64,000 nt of DNA from Minisyncoccota bacterium. GTDB taxonomy: Bacteria; Patescibacteriota; Minisyncoccia; Phycocordibacterales; CSBR16-193. A program made the translations under genes and the position numbers. The stretch is taken from contig JBBDRA010000003.1 in the NCBI GenBank assembly GCA_040905715.1, positions 330,679 through 394,678 on the forward strand, in the 5' to 3' direction. This document shows, piece after piece, positions 1 through 28,668 of this stretch. The first letter of the stretch is position 1. The number at the start of each line of letters is the position of its first letter. Under the pieces are notes generated by a model. That model ran no database searches, was not told the origin of the DNA, and was given only the letters and a program-made list of their open reading frames with translations.

Positions 1-1873
1 CTCGGGCTAGCTCAGTCTTTCCGACACCGGTCGGCCCGAGGAACATGAACGATCCGATCGGCTTTGCGGTAGCCTTCAGTCCGGCTCGGGACCGCCGAAC
101 AGCCTTTGCCACCCGTTCCACCGCTTCCTTCTGACCAACAACTCGCTTAGCCAGCTCGTCTTCCAGGTGTGATAGCTTGTCTGCCTCAGTTTCAAGCATT
201 CGAGTAGACGGGATGCCGGTCCATCTCGATACAACGCGGGCAATATCTTCTTCGGTCACTTCCTCGCGAAGAACGCGCTGGCCCTTCGGAATATCAGCTA
301 GTGCGCTTTGTGCCTCCTTAACCTTCTTTTCGAGCTGAGGTATTTCGCTGTACTGTATTTCGGCTACACGTTCGTAATTACCGGCGCGCTCTTCGCGCTC
401 TTGCTCCGCCTTTAATTCGTCTATTTTTGCAGAAACCTCACGTGTATTCTCAATCATGTCTTTCTCTCGTTTCCATTCAGCTTGTTTAGCGTTAAACGAT
501 TCATTTAGATCTGCCAGGTCCTTCGATACTTGCTCGAGACGGTCTTTGCTTTGTTTGTCTTTCTCTTTTTTAAGAGCCTCGCGTTCGATCTCGAGTTGCG
601 TTATGCGTCGTTTGAGCTGGTCAAGCTCTGTCGGCATGCTTTCCACTTCCATTTTAAGGGTAGAGGTTGCTTCATCTATGAGGTCAACCGCTTTATCCGG
701 AAGAAATCGGGAAGGGATGTAGCGGGCAGAAAGCTTTGCTGCGGCAACCAGTGCAGGGTCGGTAATATGAACCCCGTGATGTACTTCGTACTTTTCTTTA
801 AGTCCGCGCAGGATCGCCACGGTATTTTCTATGGTTGGTTCATCAACAAAGACAGGTTGGTAGCGGCGTTCCAGTGCTTGGTCTTTCTCGATGTGCTCGC
901 GATACTCGCTTAGCGTGGTGGCGCCGATCATGTGTAGCGTGCCACGAGCGAGCATCGGTTTGATCATGTTTGCAGCGTCGACTGCGCCTTCAGCTGAACC
1001 GGCGCCGACGATCGTGTGTAGCTCGTCAATAAAGAGAATGATCTTACCTTCTGCTTTCTCTACTTCCTCGAGTACCGAGCGCATACGCTCTTCAAACTCA
1101 CCGCGGTATTTTGCACCGGCTAAAAGTGAGCCGATCTGCAAGCTCATTACTTTTTTATTCTTGATAGAATCAGGCACGTCGCCGGAGACGATCCGTTGAG
1201 CTAGCCCCTCAACGATGGCGGTTTTACCAACACCCGGGTCACCGATTAGCACCGGGTTATTTTTGGTACGGCGGGCGAGTACCTGCATGACGCGTCGAAT
1301 CTCTTCGTCTCGACCGATGACCGGATCCAACTTTCCGCTATCGGCAAGCGCGGTTAGATCCTGACCGTACTGTTCCAGGACATTGTATTTGCTTTCCGGG
1401 TTTTGATCTTTGATGTTCATAGAGCCACGTACGTTTTCTAGCTTGCTAATAATGGTTTCATACGTAATGCCTGTCTCTTCAAGCAGTTTCTTAGCAGGCG
1501 TATCTGTACTAAGTATGGCGAGTAGGGCGTGTTCGGTCGAGACATACGAATCGTTGAGGCCGGTCATCTCCTTCTGTGCCTGCTCAAGAATAGTTGCAGT
1601 ATCGCGGGAGAGTCGCGGTTGCTCCACCTGCTTGAGTACGGGAAGTTTTTCGACCTCGTTTGTAACCTGCTTGTGAAGTGTTTCAGGGGAGCCACCGGCT
1701 TCTCGAATGAGTGGTGAGAAGATGGTGTCACCGTGCTCTGCTCCTTGCTGAAGCAGAGCATTAAGTAAATGCACTGCCTCGATCTGCGGGTTGCCGTGAG
1801 CTGTGGCGAGCTCAATAGCGCTTTGGAGCGCTTCTTGTGTTCGCTGGGTGTACTGTTCCGGATTGATAGTCAT
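1..1873 (-). CDS. clpB: ClpB disaggregase chaperone, partial. The N-terminus is in the window; the C-terminus runs off the left edge.
   Basis: Minus-strand translation from the ATG at 1873 gives [41 protein letters not shown]. The NBD1 Walker A is [16 protein letters not shown] long coiled-coil middle domain follows. The NBD2 Walker [12 protein letters not shown], lies at nt 1-40. About 400 aa separate the two Walker A motifs, which fits ClpB rather than ClpC. It is absent from the ORF track because no stop codon falls inside the window. Confidence 0.9.
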
Positions 1874-1904: not shown

Positions 1905-2255
1905 TTGTCAACATTGCCGAGATATAATATGCTCAATCCATCGTTGTTGTTCGTTCTTATAAAACAGATCTCGAAAGGGTGCGAGATGCCACGCAAGATC
2001 AAACAATGGTTCGTCGAACCGATCGGCAGTCACGGCAATTCCTTGATCGCGAACCTTCTGGGAGACGATCGAACTCGTGAGGACATCGTTGGCCCTCGTG
2101 GGTACCGACCAAAGCTTTACGAGTGCACACGCGAGGAGGTTACATCCATCACCCAGTCGGACATCTATGTCCGCGTCTGGAAACAGTACTCAAACGATCA
2201 GTTGGTCCGAGACACAGGCCTAAGCAGGGAGCCCAAAGACACCGCTGATGTTTGA
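1905..2255 (+). CDS. hypothetical protein
   Basis: 116-aa ORF with no recognisable motifs. The start codon is uncertain. Confidence 0.3.
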
Positions 2256-2345
2256 CCTGTATATAATGGTCACTCTTCGCTATACCGCCCGGTTTTATGC
2301 CGTGCGGTTTTTTCTTAGGTTATTATAGTTTACAATAGATAGTAT

Positions 2346-2744: not shown

Positions 2745-3452
2745 ATGAATGAACATCCTACGTTTTCTCTTGTATGGGTTGTAGTAACAGTGCTTGTGGC
2801 AATTGGCTTAGGGGTTCTTGTGCTTGCCATGATCGTTTTTTCTGGTGATGATCAAATGTCTCCTGTTGATGACGTAGTGGATGAGGGTGTTGACACGAGC
2901 GATTGGCAGACATACACAAGTGACGAGTATGATTTTTCTATCTCGCATCCGTCAGATTGGACGGTTGCCTCGCACGCCCCTACCGACGACAACATTTCTG
3001 AGACCGGTATGATATCGCCTGCGATCAATATATTCCCTGAGGATGCCGATGTATCAGCACCGTTTGATCATCACAATGAAGTGGCTAATGTCTCAGTGTT
3101 TCCCAGCGGAGTTCCAACTGAAGGGGTGGCCGGAGAACAAGAGCAGTCAGGTATGTTGTTTAATACACAGCCTGCCGAGGCCTTTGATTATGTGCTTGAT
3201 GATGGAACGTCATGGGCAACACTCGTTCGGTTTGAAGATGTGCCGGAGAGCTGGGAGCCGTACGGATTTATCTGGGCGCGAGCCGATATCGCTGATCTAG
3301 AAGTAGAGTGTATTTCAGATGGGGAGGTTGTTTCAAGCGAGCAGTGTGATCCGCTTACCGGGGACCGGGTTATTCGATCGGGGTCAGTTGATAATGACCA
3401 GCGAGAGATACAGGAAGAGATCATCAAAAGCTTTGAATTTCATCGGGAGTAG
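2745..3452 (+). CDS. hypothetical membrane-anchored or secreted protein
   Basis: An N-terminal hydrophobic helix (LVWVVVTVLVAIGLGVLVLAMIV) is followed by an acidic extracytoplasmic domain. Confidence 0.55.
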   Translation: MNEHPTFSLVWVVVTVLVAIGLGVLVLAMIVFSGDDQMSPVDDVVDEGVDTSDWQTYTSDEYDFSISHPSDWTVASHAPTDDNISETGMISPAINIFPEDADVSAPFDHHNEVANVSVFPSGVPTEGVAGEQEQSGMLFNTQPAEAFDYVLDDGTSWATLVRFEDVPESWEPYGFIWARADIADLEVECISDGEVVSSEQCDPLTGDRVIRSGSVDNDQREIQEEIIKSFEFHRE

Positions 3453-3873: not shown

Positions 3874-3906
3874 GAATAGATAACATAAAATATAATATAA
3901 ATACTA

Positions 3907-4481
3907 TGCAGAATCAGTCACAAAAACAGCAGATCATTATCGCCGTGGTGATGCTGCTCATCGGTTTTTTGATCGGAGTACTCATTACTGCCGGTTGGTA
4001 TCAAGGAAACGATGGTACATCGAATGATATTGATACAACCGATGACACTGAGCAGGTAATGGAAGATGATACTGACGATACGAGCGGTGAAGAAGACAAC
4101 GATCTACCTGATCGATCCTCACTAAATAACAACAGTTCATCGAACACGTCTGGATCAGAGGATGTATCCGTATCCGCGAATGATCAGAGTGCCGGCAATG
4201 AAGTGGTTGTATCAAATGTAGAGGTTGATAGAACAACATGGGTAGCTGTTCGCGAGGGCGTGAACGGTTCCATGGGTAACGTGCTTGGTGCTAAGCGCGT
4301 TGAGCAAGGTTCTCACTCAGATCTCACTATACGATTGCTACGAGGGACTGAGGCAGGTGGAACCTACTTTGTAACACTCTATGAAGACAACGGAGATGGT
4401 GAGTTTAGTCACATCAGCGATTCGTTAGTAGAGGTAGATGGCTCAACAGTGTTTTCAACGTTTGAAGCATCAGCAGAGTAG
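3907..4481 (+). CDS. hypothetical membrane-anchored protein with an acidic low-complexity linker
   Basis: The track ORF starts at 3786 and overlaps the upstream gene. The internal ATG at 3907 (MQNQSQKQQIIIAVVMLLIGFLIGVLI) gives an N-terminal TM helix, then a D/E/T/S-rich linker and a C-terminal globular domain. Confidence 0.5.
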
Positions 4482-21666: not shown

Positions 21667-22113
21667 ATGAAACAAGCCATTATTTGGATAATTATCGTCC
21701 TTATCGTAATAGCGGGTATTATTTGGTTCGTAAACCGCACTGATATCGAGGAACCTCTTGTAAACAATGGGCAGGAGGAAGAGGAGTCTATCGAAATTGA
21801 TTTAAACGAGCAGAATGATTCAGGCGTGTCAGGAACAGCTCTGTTGACCGAGGTTGATGGAGGCACGCGTGTTGAGCTTGATCTAGATGGAGCTCCGGAA
21901 GATATCGCTCAGCCGGCACATATTCATAGCGGAACTTGTGCTGATATCGGCGAGGTTGTGTACCCGCTGGAGTTTCCAATGAATGGTGAGTCCGAGACCA
22001 CGATCAGTGTCTCACTCGATGACCTACGTAATGAGCTTCCACTCGCAATCAATGTGCACCAGTCACCTGAGGAGATCGAGGTATATGTAGCCTGCGGTGA
22101 CATAGAAGAGTAA
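21667..22113 (+). CDS. secreted CHRD-like domain protein
   Basis: N-terminal signal-anchor, then PAHIHSGTCADIG...AINVHQS, resembling the CHRD HIH motif. Confidence 0.5.
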   Translation: MKQAIIWIIIVLIVIAGIIWFVNRTDIEEPLVNNGQEEEESIEIDLNEQNDSGVSGTALLTEVDGGTRVELDLDGAPEDIAQPAHIHSGTCADIGEVVYPLEFPMNGESETTISVSLDDLRNELPLAINVHQSPEEIEVYVACGDIEE

Positions 22114-22155
22114 GTCGATTATTAACCCCGTAAAATCTGTTATTACGAGAATAGA

Positions 22156-22189
22156 AAAAGCGCCGATGCATTCTCGCATCGGCGCTTTT
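22156..22189. terminator. bidirectional intrinsic terminator
   Basis: Stem agcgccgatgc / gcatcggcgct flanked by A4 and T4. It sits between two convergent genes. Confidence 0.7.
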
Positions 22190-22230
22190 GTAATGGTTTA
22201 TGTTCAGCAGGCAATGAATTTCGGTTGTGC

Positions 22231-22797
22231 TCACACGCGGCGACGCCTGAGCAGGAGAGTAGATCCGATAGCAAGCAGTGTCACTGAGGCCGGTTCGGGG
22301 ACGGGATATTCGACTACATAGCCGAACTGCAGATCTTTATCTGCATCATTCCAGCCCACACCTTCGCTTGCCGTGATGTACTGGGCGTCAAACTGGAGTC
22401 TTTCCTCGGAAACAAGGTTGTCGTCAGGCTGACCTGTTCCCCAGTTGGTGTAGTCCCATTGCTCGCCGGTGATCCAGCCCCAGCCATCTTCCGGACCGCT
22501 GGCCGTGGATAGTTGTCTGCCGCCCAGCCACTTGTGATCCAGTGCATCAGAACCAAAAGTGTCATAGAGGAAAAGATTTTCCTCCACTGAGGTGATCGTG
22601 GCCAGGTGGCCATCTACACCCTGGTGGGTTTGATTCATCGCAACTGACGCTGCGGCGATCCAGAAATACGGCTCATTAATCACGTCGTAGTAGTGGTCGT
22701 TGCCGCCGTCAGCGACAGTCCACTGAACCGGAGCAGCCAGCGCATTCGAAGTAAACACCAGGACGATAAAAGTGATCACGAGTCGGATACTGGCCAT
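22231..22797 (-). CDS. C-type lectin-like domain protein with a PEP-CTERM sorting signal
   Basis: Signal peptide, then CTLD-like motifs (WIAAASVAMNQT...GHLATITSVEENLFL...WGWITGEQWDYTNWGTGQPDD). The C-terminus VPEPASVTLLAIGSTLLLRRRRV is PEP plus a TM helix plus an Arg cluster. SD GGAAGGAA. Confidence 0.7.
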   Translation of the reverse strand: MASIRLVITFIVLVFTSNALAAPVQWTVADGGNDHYYDVINEPYFWIAAASVAMNQTHQGVDGHLATITSVEENLFLYDTFGSDALDHKWLGGRQLSTASGPEDGWGWITGEQWDYTNWGTGQPDDNLVSEERLQFDAQYITASEGVGWNDADKDLQFGYVVEYPVPEPASVTLLAIGSTLLLRRRRV

Positions 22798-22936
22798 GCG
22801 AGATTCCTTCCATGAATTTCATGCCAAACTGAGTAAGGTACACTATAAATACTATACGCTGAAATATTTTTTTGTCAAAACAATTCAAGTATGCCGTACC
22901 TAAGTGAAAAAATATCTGTCCTTTATTTTTCTGAAG

Positions 22937-22981
22937 AAAAAGCATAAAAATCCCACAGGCAAGCAAAGCTTGTCTGTGGGA
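22937..22981 (-). terminator. intrinsic terminator of small ORF 1
   Basis: On the minus strand, hairpin tcccacagacaagc / gcttgcctgtggga followed by TTTTTATGCTTTTT. Confidence 0.65.
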
Positions 22982-22999
22982 TGGTTTTGTCACATCAGG

Positions 23000-23185
23000 T
23001 CATTTGTCAGCGGAAGTCCTGTTGCCCTGATCGTCGTCGGCCTGGCTTGCGGCGGGGTCATCGACAGCAGAAAATTGCTGTCGCAGTTTCTGGGGAATGT
23101 CCTCATAAGGCATTCCCATTCGTGGTACATATTGATCCTGACCCTCAGTCACAGGACGCACTTGACCATTGCTGTTTGTGCACAT
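23000..23185 (-). CDS. small hydrophilic protein (61 aa), paralog 1
   Basis: SD GGAGGT lies 7 nt upstream of the ATG. Homologous at nucleotide and protein level to the ORF at 23487..23666 (shared M.T.S...QV....GQ). Confidence 0.55.
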   Translation of the reverse strand: MCTNSNGQVRPVTEGQDQYVPRMGMPYEDIPQKLRQQFSAVDDPAASQADDDQGNRTSADK

Positions 23186-23392
23186 GAGTTACCTCCAAAA
23201 GAACAGAGAAAAGAAAACCAGCCCTTTTCGTAAAGGGCTGGCGCGTATTTCTCAGAAGATGTGATGTATTGATTATTGAGATGCACGAGTAAGCCCTCTA
23301 CCGAGGTTGGTAGATGTGACGATAATCACCACACTGTGCTTACGTATTCGTTGCATTAATTAACATTGTACAAATATCTCTGTATTTAACAA
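23186..23392 (-). promoter_or_regulatory. promoter, leaderless Ile/Val-rich upstream ORF (27 aa) and intrinsic attenuator/terminator ahead of small ORF 1
   Basis: On the minus strand: promoter TTGTTA-N16-TACAAT, predicted TSS at the A of ATGCAACGA (plus-strand position 23356). The uORF is MQRIRKHSVVIIVTSTNLGRGLTRASQ*. Hairpin ccagcccttt/aaagggctgg and a T-run (23197..23241) lie immediately before the SD. Confidence 0.5.
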
Positions 23393-23419
23393 GGGTGGAG
23401 AGAACACAATAGGTGTCTA

Positions 23420-23457
23420 AATAAAAAACCCGATATGTATTTTGCATACATATCGGG
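23420..23457 (-). terminator. intrinsic terminator of small ORF 2
   Basis: Perfect 12-bp stem cccgatatgtat / atacatatcggg followed by T6 on the minus strand. Confidence 0.75.
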
Positions 23458-23486
23458 TAAGAGAGGATGTGAACGACACCAAGACG

Positions 23487-23666
23487 CTAATCCAGCGGCT
23501 GGTGATCAACATGATGACGCCGATCTCTTTCCATCTCCAAACTGAGTTGTTCGTCCAGTCGAGAGGTTGGACGATGGTCGTTTGGCTCCACGCGCACACG
23601 CTGTGTCGGGAGCGGCTGACCGGAAGTACTCTTCGCTACCTGCCTGTCTGTGCTCGTTGTGGTCAT
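23487..23666 (-). CDS. small hydrophilic protein (60 aa), paralog 2
   Basis: Internal Met of track ORF 23487..23693. SD GGAGGTGG lies 6 nt upstream of the ATG. Product MTTTSTDRQVAKSTSGQPLP... Confidence 0.55.
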   Translation of the reverse strand: MTTTSTDRQVAKSTSGQPLPTQRVRVEPNDHRPTSRLDEQLSLEMERDRRHHVDHQPLD

Positions 23667-23934
23667 ATACCACCTCCAAAAGAAAAAGAACAAAATTACT
23701 GCCTATCTGCCGCACCGTACGCTAAACAAAAACCAGCTCTTTGGTGAAGAGCTGGCGCGTATTTCCTAGGAGTTATTGTTACTTAAGAGACACGAGTAAG
23801 ACCTTCACCAGTTGAACTGGTACTACTAAGGTTCTTGACCACAATAATGCTTGTTCGCATAGCTATTTTAGTGGCTACAACTCGTTGCATGTGGAAATTA
23901 TAACGCCACGTATTGAGTTTGCAAGGTGTGGATA
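23667..23934 (-). promoter_or_regulatory. promoter, leaderless Ile/Val-rich upstream ORF (35 aa) and intrinsic attenuator/terminator ahead of small ORF 2
   Basis: Promoter TTGCAA-N16-TATAAT, TSS at ATGCAACGA (plus-strand position 23890). The uORF is MQRVVATKIAMRTSIIVVKNLSSTSSTGEGLTRVS*. The conserved block GAAATACGCGCCAGC, then stem ccagctctt/aagagctgg and a T-run (23724..23755), precede the SD. Confidence 0.5.
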
Positions 23935-23950
23935 GTATTGTAATAGGGTT

Positions 23951-25258
23951 ATGAAACGACAGGATATTGCTAAAAAGCAGCTTCCGGATCAGCCCGGTGT
24001 ATATTTCTTTAAGAAAGGACGGCAAATACTCTACATTGGTAAGGCCACATCCCTTCGCGACCGTGTGCGGAGTTATTTCAGCGGCGACATAATACTCTCT
24101 CGCAGTCATCTTATCCAGCAGATGGTCGAAGAGGCGGTTACGGTTACCTTTCAACAAACTGACTCAGTTCTTGAGGCGCTCGTGCTGGAGGCAGAGTTGA
24201 TCAAGCGGTATCAGCCACTGTACAACACTCGTGACAAAGATAACAAGAGTTTCAACTACGTTGTCGTAACCGATGAAGATTTTCCTCGAATACTTACCGT
24301 ACGAGGTCGTGAACTTGAAAAAATAGAGTATGAACGACCGCTTGCGTCCAGCAAACCATCACGGTCAACCTCCGTATCGGCAATTCTGCGCCGAACTTCT
24401 GTTAAGAGAACCTTTGGTCCGTTTACATCAGGAAGCTCCCTTCAAGAGGGGTTCAAAATAATACGAAGAATATTTCCGTATCGAGACAGAAAATGCATCC
24501 CTGCAGAAGAGCAACGTGATCCACGCAACCCAAAACCATGCTTTAACCAACAGATAGGTCTGTGCCCGGGAGTATGCACCGGCGGGATAACGAAACGGGA
24601 ATACCAGCGACACATTCGCAATATAGTGCTTTTCTTTGAAGGAAAAAAGAAACAGCTTCTTAAGAAACTTACCACACAGATGAATCGTGCAGCGAAGAAT
24701 CAGGAGTTTGAAAAAGCAACTGATATTCGCCGACAGATATATGCACTAACGCATATTAACGATACCGCACTGCTTACCCGTGACTTTTTTGGAAACTCCT
24801 CTGGGAACGGAAAAATATTCCGGGTTGAAGCGTATGATATCGCTCACTTAAGCGGAAGTGCACACGTCGGAGTAATGACGGTGGTGGAAGATGGGGAAGT
24901 GAATACTGACGAATATAGGAAGTTTCGAATACGCGGACAAGAAGGGGTGAACGACACGAAAGCACTACGTGAGATCATCTCGCGTCGGCTCGACCATCCG
25001 GAATGGCGTATGCCGAACCTGATCGTTGTTGACGGCGGAAAGGCGCAGAAAAATGTTGCTACGCGTTTGCTCGAAGATGTTGGTGTGGTGATACCTATTG
25101 TTGCAGTTGTAAAGGATGAACGGCACAAGCCGCGCGACTTGATCGGCAAAGAAGACATCGTAAGAAAACATCAAGACGACATTCTTTTGGCAAATAGTGA
25201 GTCTCATCGCTACGCGATACAGTTCCACCGCCAGCGATTGCGAAAAGGGCGGGAATAG
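23951..25258 (+). CDS. uvrC: excinuclease ABC subunit C, short form lacking the C-terminal HhH domain
   Basis: N-terminal GIY-YIG domain (GVYFFKKGRQILYIGKATSLRDRV). C-terminal endonuclease/RNase H-like domain (RVEAYDIAHLSG). 435 aa against about 600 aa typically. Confidence 0.85.
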   Translation: MKRQDIAKKQLPDQPGVYFFKKGRQILYIGKATSLRDRVRSYFSGDIILSRSHLIQQMVEEAVTVTFQQTDSVLEALVLEAELIKRYQPLYNTRDKDNKSFNYVVVTDEDFPRILTVRGRELEKIEYERPLASSKPSRSTSVSAILRRTSVKRTFGPFTSGSSLQEGFKIIRRIFPYRDRKCIPAEEQRDPRNPKPCFNQQIGLCPGVCTGGITKREYQRHIRNIVLFFEGKKKQLLKKLTTQMNRAAKNQEFEKATDIRRQIYALTHINDTALLTRDFFGNSSGNGKIFRVEAYDIAHLSGSAHVGVMTVVEDGEVNTDEYRKFRIRGQEGVNDTKALREIISRRLDHPEWRMPNLIVVDGGKAQKNVATRLLEDVGVVIPIVAVVKDERHKPRDLIGKEDIVRKHQDDILLANSESHRYAIQFHRQRLRKGRE

Positions 25259-26528: not shown

Positions 26529-26604
26529 GGGCCCGTAGCTCATCTGGTAGAGCGCCTCACTTGCACTGAGGAGGTGGCAGGTTCGAGTCCTGTCGGGTCC
26601 ACCA
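26529..26604 (+). tRNA. tRNA-Ala(UGC) with encoded CCA
   Basis: GGGCCCGTAGCTCATCTGGTAGAGCGCCTCACTTGCACTGAGGAGGTGGCAGGTTCGAGTCCTGTCGGGTCCACCA. Anticodon loop CTTGCAC and a G3:U70 pair. Confidence 0.95.
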
Positions 26605-28081
26605 ATATCAAACTTTCGGATTTTTTCCCAACCGATTCGGCGGCGCGTTGCGCCGCAAAGTAGGCAGGCAAAGGGTTTCCGCGCGCTTCGCGCGCGTCCA
26701 AACGGAGGTTCGAGCCAAAGATTTCTTTGGCTATGACCTTTTTGCGGGAAAGGTCATCATCACTTGCGATTTTGACGAGGTTTGAAGCGACTTTTATCCA
26801 ATTCTGGAACGGTTCGAGCCAATCATTCTGCTTTTGCTCAAGTTGGGCAATTTGGCCTTCCAGCGACTTCTTTTCTGAAAGGAGTTTTGCTTTTTTCTCG
26901 CGATATACCTCTCGCTCAATGTCCTGTTCCAAATAACCGTCAAGAAGTCGCTGGAGCTTAATTTCAATATTTTTGATTTTCTCTCTTGCTTCGTCAGCAA
27001 AAGCAGAAACGGATTGGGCGGATTTTTCTTTATCGACTTTCGCCATTTTCAACAATTTTTCCGCCCAATCCGAACGCAAAGAAACTTTTTGAATTTTGGA
27101 TGATAACTGCCGATTTAATTCTTCCTCTCGCACATAGGGTTGCGAGCACTTTTGTTTGCCCTTTTTAGTACAGCGATAGTAAATATGTCCTTTTTGCTTT
27201 TCGGCAGTTATCATCATGCCGCATTCGGCGCAAGAGATAAGACCACAGAACGCCTGCGGTTCATTCTTCTGTTTCTTTCTCGGTCGTCCGCGCTCTTGCA
27301 ATACCTCTTGCGCCGTATCAAAAAGTTTCTTTGTGATGATTGGCTCGTGCTTTCCTTCGTGTATTTCGCCAGCGTAGCGAAATAAACCTGTATAAAAAGG
27401 ATTGGAGAGGATAAAAGTCACCCTCGTCTTGTGGATTCTCTTTCCGCCGCGGGATAGTATCCCGCGTTGCGCCAAAAAGTTAGAAATATCCTCCAACCGC
27501 GAATTTCCTTTTGCGTACAATTCAAAAGCCCCGCGAATAATCCGAGCTTTCTTTTTGTCCACTACAACTGTTTTTGTGCGACTGTCGTTTATATAGCCAA
27601 TAGGCGCAACGCTCGGATATTCGCCCCGCTTAACTTTTTGGCGCAAACCACGCTTCGTATTTTCGGAAAGAGAATCCACATAGTATTTGCTTTGCCCAAA
27701 GGCAATATTGAGCATGAACTTTCCTTGCGGCGTTGACTCAAACCAAAATTGTGGAAACTTCAACGCCGTAATACGCCCGCAATCTAAAAGATAAATAATG
27801 CGCCCGCCGTCAACAGAATTGCGCGCCAATCTATCAGGATGCCAAGCCAAAATCCCCGCGGCCTCGCCTTTTTCAATACGCTCTAACATTTCACCGAATA
27901 TCGGCCGTCCGGGGATTTTAGCACTCTGCTTTTCAATAAAAGTATCAACGATATCTAATTCTTCCTGTTTGGCAAAGGCGCGCAATTCTGCGGTCTGGTC
28001 TTCAATAGAGCGCACTTGTTTATCTTCCACATCGGTGGACTTGCGGGCGTATATGAAAAATTTTGTGTTGTTCATGCTCAT
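26540..28081 (-). CDS. large serine recombinase (resolvase catalytic domain, recombinase domain, zinc ribbon and coiled coil)
   Basis: N-terminal FFIYARKSTDVEDKQ...LARN. Zinc ribbon CGLISCAECGMM...YYRCTKK. Coiled-coil tail. The last roughly 60 codons lie in inverted repeat 1-L and run antisense into the tRNA-Ala 3' end, so the true stop may be earlier or a program-dependent call. Confidence 0.85.
   Translation of the reverse strand: MSMNNTKFFIYARKSTDVEDKQVRSIEDQTAELRAFAKQEELDIVDTFIEKQSAKIPGRPIFGEMLERIEKGEAAGILAWHPDRLARNSVDGGRIIYLLDCGRITALKFPQFWFESTPQGKFMLNIAFGQSKYYVDSLSENTKRGLRQKVKRGEYPSVAPIGYINDSRTKTVVVDKKKARIIRGAFELYAKGNSRLEDISNFLAQRGILSRGGKRIHKTRVTFILSNPFYTGLFRYAGEIHEGKHEPIITKKLFDTAQEVLQERGRPRKKQKNEPQAFCGLISCAECGMMITAEKQKGHIYYRCTKKGKQKCSQPYVREEELNRQLSSKIQKVSLRSDWAEKLLKMAKVDKEKSAQSVSAFADEAREKIKNIEIKLQRLLDGYLEQDIEREVYREKKAKLLSEKKSLEGQIAQLEQKQNDWLEPFQNWIKVASNLVKIASDDDLSRKKVIAKEIFGSNLRLDAREARGNPLPAYFAAQRAAESVGKKSESLILVDPTGLEPATSSVQVRRSTR
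26598..26713. repeat. inverted repeat 1, left copy (116 bp, perfect); its outer end includes the tRNA's last 7 nt
   Basis: Exact reverse complement of 28131..28246, verified base by base over the compared stretch. Confidence 0.85.
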
Positions 28082-28130
28082 ATATTTTTAATTGATTGGG
28101 CAAAGCAAGTACTTAAAATCGCAAGTGATG

Positions 28131-28246
28131 TCGAACCTCCGTTTGGACGCGCGCGAAGCGCGCGGAAACCCTTTGCCTGCCTACTTTGCGGCGCAACGCG
28201 CCGCCGAATCGGTTGGGAAAAAATCCGAAAGTTTGATATTGGTGGA
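28131..28246. repeat. inverted repeat 1, right copy
   Basis: Reverse complement of 26598..26713. The two copies bracket the recombinase gene. Confidence 0.85.
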
Positions 28247-28573
28247 ATTATACGACTTCGCTCGAACGCATTTTGAACAGAACCCCGACTGACGCACGCG
28301 CGGAGCGCGTGGTGGCTCTGAACTAAATCGTACGCTCTCGCCCCGCCCCTCGCCTCCGCTATCGCTACGGCGAGAACCTCGCAGAAATTTTCCCTTACAA
28401 TTTTCTTTTGCGCGCGCCCCCTGAAAAAAATTCTAAAAAGGAAAGGGAAATTTCTGCTCGGTTCCGCCCTCCAAGTATTCGGGCAAGGCGGGGCTACCAA
28501 CGCTCGGACGGCTCGGCATTCCTCCCCCTGACCCCCTCCTGCCGAGCCGTCCTCGCTTCGGGGAACGGGCGGG
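28242..28573. repeat. inverted repeat 2, left copy (about 331 bp, GC-rich, near perfect); abuts and overlaps inverted repeat 1-R by 5 nt
   Basis: Reverse complement of 32236..32566 with a few substitutions. Contains internal palindromes (gacggctcggca/tgccgagccgtc; gcagaaattttccctt/aagggaaatttctgc). Confidence 0.85.
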
Positions 28574-28668
28574 CGGTTATTTACAATAGCGTAATAATTT
28601 AGTATCATTTTAGTAGTGATTGAGAATATCACTTATACCTACTTTAATACTACTAAATTATTAGTCAA

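Follow-up and report, generated by a model that had tools for sequence, protein, structure and literature searches.

A candidate transcription attenuator in Candidatus Paceibacterota

The minus strand of the 64-kb stretch of contig JBBDRA010000003.1 analysed here (the window) carries, at 22937..23934, two tandem units, A and B, each of which comprises a promoter, a short upstream open reading frame (uORF), an intrinsic terminator, a Shine–Dalgarno (SD) sequence, a small open reading frame (ORF-A or ORF-B), and a final terminator. From its sequence, each unit is predicted to act as a ribosome-mediated transcription attenuator with three hairpins, the leader peptide being encoded by a leaderless (5'-AUG) transcript; to this reading we assign a probability of about 0.6. 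The host belongs to Candidatus Paceibacterota, within the Candidate Phyla Radiation (CPR; Patescibacteria), and the units represent a previously undescribed, narrow family in three or four related lineages of metagenome-assembled genomes (MAGs) of this group. Leader-peptide attenuation is textbook biology for amino-acid biosynthetic operons; the mechanism is classical, and the family, the host group, and the kind of target gene are new. An earlier note on this DNA had proposed a ribosome-mediated attenuator upstream of small non-biosynthetic ORFs, and this core is supported by a covarying antiterminator that excludes the terminator, by the retention of the uORF frame and its AUG, and by a classical attenuator geometry.

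The divergent neighbour of the units is uvrC, the product of which is identical to a protein of a Candidatus Paceibacterota MAG; the placement of the host in this group follows from that match. The loci of 11 UvrC proteins (56–100% identity) were inspected in a synteny walk. Orthologous leaders, likewise divergent from uvrC, occur in three other MAG lineages, L007, L009, and L021 (UvrC identity to the window 74, 73, and 62%, respectively). Together with window units A and B, these give the five distinct leaders of the comparison set (alignment A5).

Terminator versus antiterminator

The antiterminator is a 19-pair helix between region 2 and region 3, in which 86% of cells are paired, against 24–47% when the partners are slid by 1–3 columns, and in which five pairs are changed on both sides. 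The terminator helix has 10 pairs, with 96% of cells paired and four pairs changed on both sides. Because columns 143–152 are common to the 3' strand of the antiterminator and to the terminator, the two helices are mutually exclusive; the earlier note had suggested searching for an alternative antiterminator pairing of this kind. In L007, region 2 (GGUGGAGGGUUUGCUCGUG) occupies the last ~7 uORF codons and region 3 reads UACGAGUCAGCCCUUCACC. The covariation extends to three strands across L007, L009, and L021, region 2 being GGAGGG, GGAGGA, and GGGAAG, and region 3 CCCUUC, UCCUUC, and CUUCCC, respectively, with a matching 3' arm of the terminator. When the antiterminator or the terminator is enforced, the predicted energies are 0.4–6.7 kcal/mol apart in all five members; on these modelled values, the gap is as small as a kinetic switch needs.

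The 15-mer GAAATACGCGCCAGC, exact in both window units, corresponds to the antiterminator 3' strand running into the 5' arm of the terminator stem. It had been described as a conserved block, which holds for A and B; the orthologs differ (GCGCTACGAGTCAGC), and only the pairing is kept. A protein- or ligand-binding box at this site was rejected because the sequence is not conserved in the orthologs.

When the 5' part of the leader is folded alone, its 5' end (~first 25 nucleotides, nt) pairs with the CUCGUG half of region 2 in all five members, and the GGUGG half finds its partner in an internal strand. Among upstream segments, the one that pairs best with region 2 always begins within nt 1–11 (nt 1–2 in four members, nt 11 in L021), and region 1 spans roughly the first 9–17 codons. 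Between A/B and L007/L009, GUAAG...CUUAC is exchanged for GCAA...UUGC, a compensatory change by which an encoded T becomes A; since residues are altered, it is the RNA pairing and not the peptide sequence that is kept there. A crude shuffle test finds the 1:2 pairing clearly non-random in B, L007, and L021.

The leader reading frame

In all five members, the uORF AUG lies 6–8 nt 3' of the −10 element, with a 16-nt spacer between −10 and −35, and none of the five has an SD sequence 5' of the uORF. This promoter geometry predicts a 5' untranslated region (UTR) of 0–2 nt throughout. The uORF ends in every case at a UAA inside the antiterminator loop. Over the five members, frame 0 contains no in-frame stop, compared with six and eight in frames 1 and 2; the chance of an open uORF is 0.11–0.31 per sequence. 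Every length difference that could be placed between members is a multiple of 3 (A, +21 nt; B, −6 and +3; L021, +6 and −9, relative to L007). P1 denotes the pairing of region 1 with the 3' half of region 2; compared with the other members, L021 has its AUG 11 nt more distant from P1, and its promoter is displaced together with the AUG. The open frame, the frame-preserving insertions and deletions (indels), and the promoter that tracks the AUG favour a translated leaderless uORF over a coincidental one. The earlier note had named loss of the uORF frame in homologs as a refutation of its proposal; the frame, and the AUG at the predicted start, are kept in five diverged members.

Proposed mechanism

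The geometry is that of classical attenuators, with region 1 at the 5' end and region 2 in the last uORF codons. Region 2 has a choice of partners: either the 5' end together with an internal hairpin strand (region 1), or region 3. The 1:2 pairing acts as an anti-antiterminator and also buries the AUG, which lies inside it in 4/5 members, while the ~19-bp 2:3 antiterminator consumes the 5' arm of the terminator. If no ribosome is loaded, 1:2 would form first and the terminator (3:4) would follow, such that transcription would stop before the SD of the small ORF. A ribosome that proceeds rapidly to the UAA in the antiterminator loop would cover region 2, and the terminator would form again. Only a ribosome slowed within approximately the first 15 codons would cover region 1 and leave region 2 free to capture region 3; the resulting antiterminator would allow RNA polymerase to read through into the ORF of 59 or 61 amino acids (aa). 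In every member, the putative slow zone contains two or more Val codons, with Ile, Leu, and Thr abundant as well, and the quantity sensed would be translation speed.

The central peptide segments are IIVVKNL (A), VVIIVTS (B), LLIVVKLL (L021), TVMVKNL (L007), and IVKVTNL (L009). Within a 7-codon central window, 22/35 residues are I, V, or L, and none of the five members has fewer than two Val codons. The leading candidate for the sensed signal is limitation of Val/Ile(/Leu, Thr)-tRNA, with general translation slowdown as a serious alternative. CPR bacteria generally lack amino-acid biosynthesis, and therefore such a sensor would report external supply; this organism probably cannot make Val, Ile, Leu, or Thr. 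More tentatively, and as an extended scenario that we regard as possible rather than probable, the units may constitute a lineage-specific sensor of starvation or translation speed in an obligately dependent CPR bacterium. Ribosomes that initiate leaderless would stall on Val/Ile/Leu/Thr codons, report the supply of amino acids from the host or environment, and switch on rapidly evolving, disordered mini-proteins poor in branched-chain amino acids (BCAAs), as a hitherto undescribed stress or host-interaction response; the tandem duplication would wire a second, unrelated mini-protein to the same signal.

Weighing the attenuator against alternative explanations

Several observations weigh against the attenuator. 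Translation of the uORF is itself deduced from nucleotide sequence. Differences between the L007 and L009 uORFs fall at zero first, six second, and eight third codon positions, indicating that the middle of the peptide is not under purifying selection; a leader peptide can tolerate such freedom, but it provides no positive evidence of coding. P1 pairing accounts equally well for the conserved residues at the N- and C-termini. The crude shuffle test places the 1:2 pairing of unit A and L009 no higher than chance, and the whole comparison is limited to five sequences, drawn from about four lineages. Across the peptide as a whole, enrichment is modest (T 2.0x, V 1.7x, I 1.1x, L 0.8x), and the run of 4–5 Ile/Val codons reported in the earlier note, although present in A and B, is missing in L007 (TVMVK) and L009 (IVKVT). 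The targets have no link to amino-acid metabolism. Furthermore, L027 (UvrC identity 58%) keeps at 2835..2945 (−) a homologous terminator block (GAAATATACACCAGC...), a long antiterminator helix (predicted minimum free energy structure), GGAGGT, and a small ORF, here a 25-aa poly-acidic one (MPIAFRRTRPHDEDEPDEDDDDE), yet has no recognizable long uORF, only a 3-codon mini-ORF (AUGAAAUGCUGA) inside region 2. L027 is either a degenerate version of the same switch or a different input design for it.

The observations on L027 are also compatible with a riboswitch-like or factor-binding leader, in which a 5' multi-stem junction closed by P1 would bind a metabolite, tRNA, or protein, stabilize 1:2, and thereby favour the terminator, leaving the uORF as a by-product of structure. 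We consider this unlikely, although the 5' domain is structured (z-scores −2.9 and −6.5), all five leaders fold closed by P1, and a terminator/antiterminator switch is equally compatible with a ligand-driven mechanism; the weak amino-acid enrichment and the coincidence of the conserved peptide ends with the P1 strands are likewise in its favour. However, the leaders match no Rfam family at E ≤ 10 (searched over 22000..25000) or at the gathering score (whole window), and P2, P3, and the junctions vary in length and sequence with no conserved unpaired core, five sequences being too few to exclude a new aptamer. The earlier note had itself raised a riboswitch with a coincidental uORF. The riboswitch is a real rival, whereas a coincidental uORF is disfavoured by the five length differences that all preserve the frame, by frame 0 being the sole open frame, and by the L021 promoter, which tracks the AUG and not P1.

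An attenuator of identical architecture might respond instead to general translation stress, caused by ribosome-targeting antibiotics from neighbours or the host or by reduced leaderless initiation, such that any slowdown on the uORF would induce the mini-proteins. Resistance genes are known at which antibiotics induce read-through of a terminator in a uORF-dependent manner, none of the amino acids stands out as strongly enriched, and L007 and L009 differ freely in the middle of the peptide. Nevertheless, the regulated ORFs match no resistance or rescue family, and the stall window of all five members retains two or more Val codons together with Ile/Leu, which hints at some codon specificity; we rate this input as rather improbable. 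Very improbable is a pair of stand-alone small RNA (sRNA) genes of ~150–170 nt from promoter to terminator, trans-acting or encoding a functional 27–35-aa peptide, with downstream ORFs that are independent or spurious. Each leader does have its own promoter and strong terminator, ORF-A and ORF-B are orphans of fast-evolving sequence, and attenuator-derived sRNAs and functional leader peptides exist (PMC6614838; PMC7298713). Against this, the interval from leader terminator to SD contains no promoter-like site, each of the five leaders is followed by a strong SD and a 51–61-aa ORF, and a conserved, covarying antiterminator would be purposeless in a simple sRNA gene. An sRNA function could also hold in addition to attenuation, with which it is compatible.

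Comparison with known attenuators

The closest described relative of the attenuator proposed here is that of Corynebacterium glutamicum ilvBNC, which has a leaderless, BCAA-rich leader peptide and three hairpins (Morbach 2000 via PMC11857589). The shared features are a leader peptide without a ribosome-binding site (RBS), the AUG of IlvL being 0–1 nt from the transcription start site (here, the start site is predicted); Ile/Val/Leu codons in the peptide; anti-antiterminator, antiterminator, and terminator hairpins; and a first hairpin that sequesters the 5' start codon, for which reason initiation must be co-transcriptional. There is no sequence similarity between the two systems. IlvL (MTIIRLVVVTARRLP) has 15 aa, 7 of them BCAAs, compared with 27–35 aa and modest enrichment here; it controls enzymes of BCAA biosynthesis, whereas the Paceibacterota leaders precede orphan hydrophilic mini-proteins in an organism from which these pathways are probably absent.

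The enterobacterial trp, leu, thr, ilvGMEDA, and ilvBN attenuators share the 1:2 / 2:3 / 3:4 logic, a uORF stop just 3' of region 2, and an intrinsic terminator directly 5' of the regulated cistron. They differ in having uORFs with an SD and a 5' UTR, dense runs of cognate codons, and biosynthetic operons as targets; the leaders described here match no Rfam model of the ilv/leu/thr type and have no biosynthetic operon downstream. In Deinococcus deserti, 14 leaderless leader peptides have been predicted, with a 5'-AUG transcript and a short peptide 5' of the regulated gene, and have been read as transcription attenuation (PMC4007540). Those peptides, however, are rich in the cognate residue and precede genes for aminoacyl-tRNA synthetases and amino-acid biosynthesis (PMC4007540), in a different phylum and without homology to the present leaders. 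Mycobacterial polycysteine small ORFs (sORFs) are likewise leaderless, sensory, and first on the transcript, and ribosome pausing on them remodels downstream RNA (bioRxiv 10.1101/834739). In them, translation of the following gene is controlled through exposure of its RBS, and the signal is a clear Cys tract (bioRxiv 10.1101/834739); in the present units, the output is a terminator with its T-run, and nothing in the leaders corresponds to the Cys tract.

A literature search found no publication that pairs Patescibacteria with transcription attenuation. The units would extend the same logic to a reduced-genome lineage, with a leaderless uORF, orphan mini-proteins in place of biosynthetic genes, and duplication of a portable promoter-plus-leader cassette. 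If the attenuator reading is correct, co-transcriptional translation and leaderless initiation operate in CPR bacteria, and the leaders provide a handle on what these organisms sense and flag a set of regulated small proteins. The family is narrow and the mechanism known; the value lies mainly in annotation and comparison.

Organization of the two tandem units

All features of both units in Table 1 were located on the minus strand by sequence inspection, and every element of the tandem layout described in the earlier note (promoter, uORF, terminator, SD, small ORF, terminator) is present. Some details of that description require adjustment. Homology between A and B covers the promoter and leader only (~150–170 nt plus the −35 flank, the unit B flank TCCACCCTTGTTAAA being homologous to the unit A promoter) and does not extend to the downstream ORFs, which lack similarity; therefore, the duplicated item is a regulatory cassette and not a gene. 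Of the small ORFs, given as 60–61 aa, ORF-B has 61 aa, whereas ORF-A has 59 aa from its SD-preceded ATG. The SD directly follows the terminator in unit B, as stated, but in unit A ~45 nt including a small hairpin intervene between T-run and SD. Premature termination in unit B had been placed at 23197; the T-run lies instead at ~23216..23205.

Table 1. Elements of units A and B and the motif upstream of the leader promoters (window positions unless a locus is named).
Feature	Position	Strand	Remarks
Unit A promoter, TTGCAA-16-TATAAT	23924..23897	-	6 nt from −10 end to uORF AUG; layout recurs in L007, L009, L021
Unit A ATGCAACGA	23890	-	Start of uORF-A
uORF-A, 35 codons + stop, MQRVVATKIAMRTSIIVVKNLSSTSSTGEGLTRVS	23890..23783	-	Predicted leaderless; frame kept in five members
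Unit A region 1	23872..23889	-	Anti-antiterminator 5' strand including start codon; partner is 3' half of region 2 (P1)
Unit A region 2, GGTGAAGGTCTTACTCGTG	23791..23809	-	Antiterminator 5' strand; uORF codons 28–34
Unit A region 3, TACGCGCCAGCTCTTCACC	23743..23761	-	Antiterminator 3' strand; overlaps terminator 5' arm and loop
Unit A attenuator terminator	Hairpin 23756..23732, T-run to ~23723	-	
Unit A SD, GGAGGT	23677..23672	-	
ORF-A	23666..23487	-	59-aa hydrophilic orphan protein
Unit A final terminator	23458..23420	-	Also delimited as 23458..23428
Unit B promoter, TTGTTA-16-TACAAT	23392..23365	-	8 nt from −10 end to AUG
Unit B ATGCAACGA	23356	-	Start of uORF-B
uORF-B, 27 codons + stop, MQRIRKHSVVIIVTSTNLGRGLTRASQ	23356..23273	-	
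Unit B region 2, GGTAGAGGGCTTACTCGTG	23284..23302	-	Antiterminator 5' strand
Unit B region 3, TACGCGCCAGCCCTTTACG	23229..23247	-	Antiterminator 3' strand
Unit B attenuator terminator	Hairpin 23242..23217, T-run ~23216..23205	-	
Unit B SD, GGAGGT	23196..23191	-	
ORF-B	23185..23000	-	61-aa acidic orphan protein
Unit B final terminator	22982..22942	-	Bidirectional hairpin; also delimited as 22982..22950
CCATACTATCCACAC motif	Window 23925..23950; L007 ~3346..3375; L009 ~2280..2310; L021 ~3905..3930		

Within 22000..24500, terminator-like sites are ~5x enriched (10 found, against 2.1 expected from shuffles). Promoter-like sites alone are not enriched in the same interval (5 found, 3.7 expected), and the unit promoters gain weight only because their position is kept in the homologs.

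The additional segment between T-run and SD in unit A (23678..23722, −) is also present in the orthologs L007 (~3120..3170, −) and L009 (~2050..2100, −). It contains a small hairpin rich in GC (CGTACGG(G)TGC...) and, just 5' of the SD, a pyrimidine tract (TTTTGTTCTTT); the tract is found in unit B too (TCTGTTCTTTT). The segment might serve as a further structural checkpoint or else enhance translation.

The motif CCATACTATCCACAC, just 5' of the leader −35, is kept in all four lineages. Its reverse complement, GTGTGGATAGTATGG, places a −10-like TAGTAT only 10–12 nt before the uvrC ATG, with no SD. To judge by this arrangement, uvrC may itself be leaderless or nearly so, which would fit leaderless initiation being common in this organism.

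Distribution of the leader

There is no leader at the loci of six further UvrC relatives (L011, L020, L028, L030, L031, and L032), and L019 is the same strain as the window. Additional copies, which the earlier note had suggested searching for in the genome and in relatives, were found in part: relatives have the three orthologs beside uvrC, but nhmmer identified no further leader copy in the window or in any fetched locus. The opposite-strand nhmmer matches arise because the antiterminator is a long inverted repeat. Exact-pattern searches returned three matches to CTTACTCGTGN{15,45}AATACGCGCC in the genome collection, all in unrelated coding-like sequence without a terminator; seven matches to ATGCAACGN{56,86}CTCGTGYNTCTYAA in the metagenome collection, all due to chance; and five chance matches to TTTGCTCGTGTNTCTTAA in the viral collection. 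In the Rfam scan, only terminator hairpins were matched, weakly, by microRNA or sRNA models, and the sole match to Leu_leader (17 bits, where 50 are needed) is the terminator after the neighbouring lectin gene.

Downstream mini-proteins

The regulated mini-proteins are fast-evolving and very hydrophilic, with grand average of hydropathy (GRAVY) values of −1.2 to −1.7; in many cases they are acidic, and branched-chain residues are scarce in them. ORF-A and ORF-B are not similar to each other and were rejected as paralogs, and neither matches a Pfam or NCBIfam family. No relatives of either were found outside the clade in 5.8 billion clusters or in a library of 1.84 billion representatives; the ORF-B search, the ORF-A profile search, and the search of this library yielded only the proteins themselves and the L007 ortholog.

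In L021 (3328..3694, −), two small hydrophilic ORFs come one after the other behind the leader and begin with MCDDNN... (51 aa) and MCTKRT... (~61 aa); ORF-B of the window begins with MCTNSN.... The common Met-Cys-Thr/Asp N-terminus may mark a loose mini-protein family, with no significant similarity established. In L009, a 53-aa Cys-rich ORF (MNCNKCGKEGDGHKCDMCG...) at 1559..1720 (+), metal-binding-like in appearance, is convergent with the ORF-A ortholog.

Genomic surroundings

The lectin gene next to the units (22231..22797, −) was rejected as their target because it has its own strong promoter and follows a terminator. This promoter, at 22878..22851, is near-consensus (TTGACA-16-TATAGT). 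The gene product, a secreted protein of 188 aa, has a weak match to C-type lectins (E 0.0033) and ends in a tail of VPEP, transmembrane segment, and RRRR (PEP-CTERM, E 0.0018), both scores being below Pfam thresholds. A PEP-CTERM signal would be unusual in a CPR bacterium and would imply that an exosortase system exists. The ORF at 21667..22113 (+), which runs convergently to the lectin gene, encodes a protein of 148 aa that has a membrane anchor at its N-terminus and matches CHRD weakly (E 0.004, below threshold); the two genes have a strong terminator region in common (22156..22189).

On the other side of the units, tRNA-Ala(TGC) at 26529..26604 (+) is overlapped by the 3' end of a 513-aa serine-recombinase ORF (26540..28081, −), behind which lies a further ORF (28078..28632). 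The arrangement resembles the boundary of a mobile element integrated at a tRNA gene, ~2.6 kb away from units A and B.

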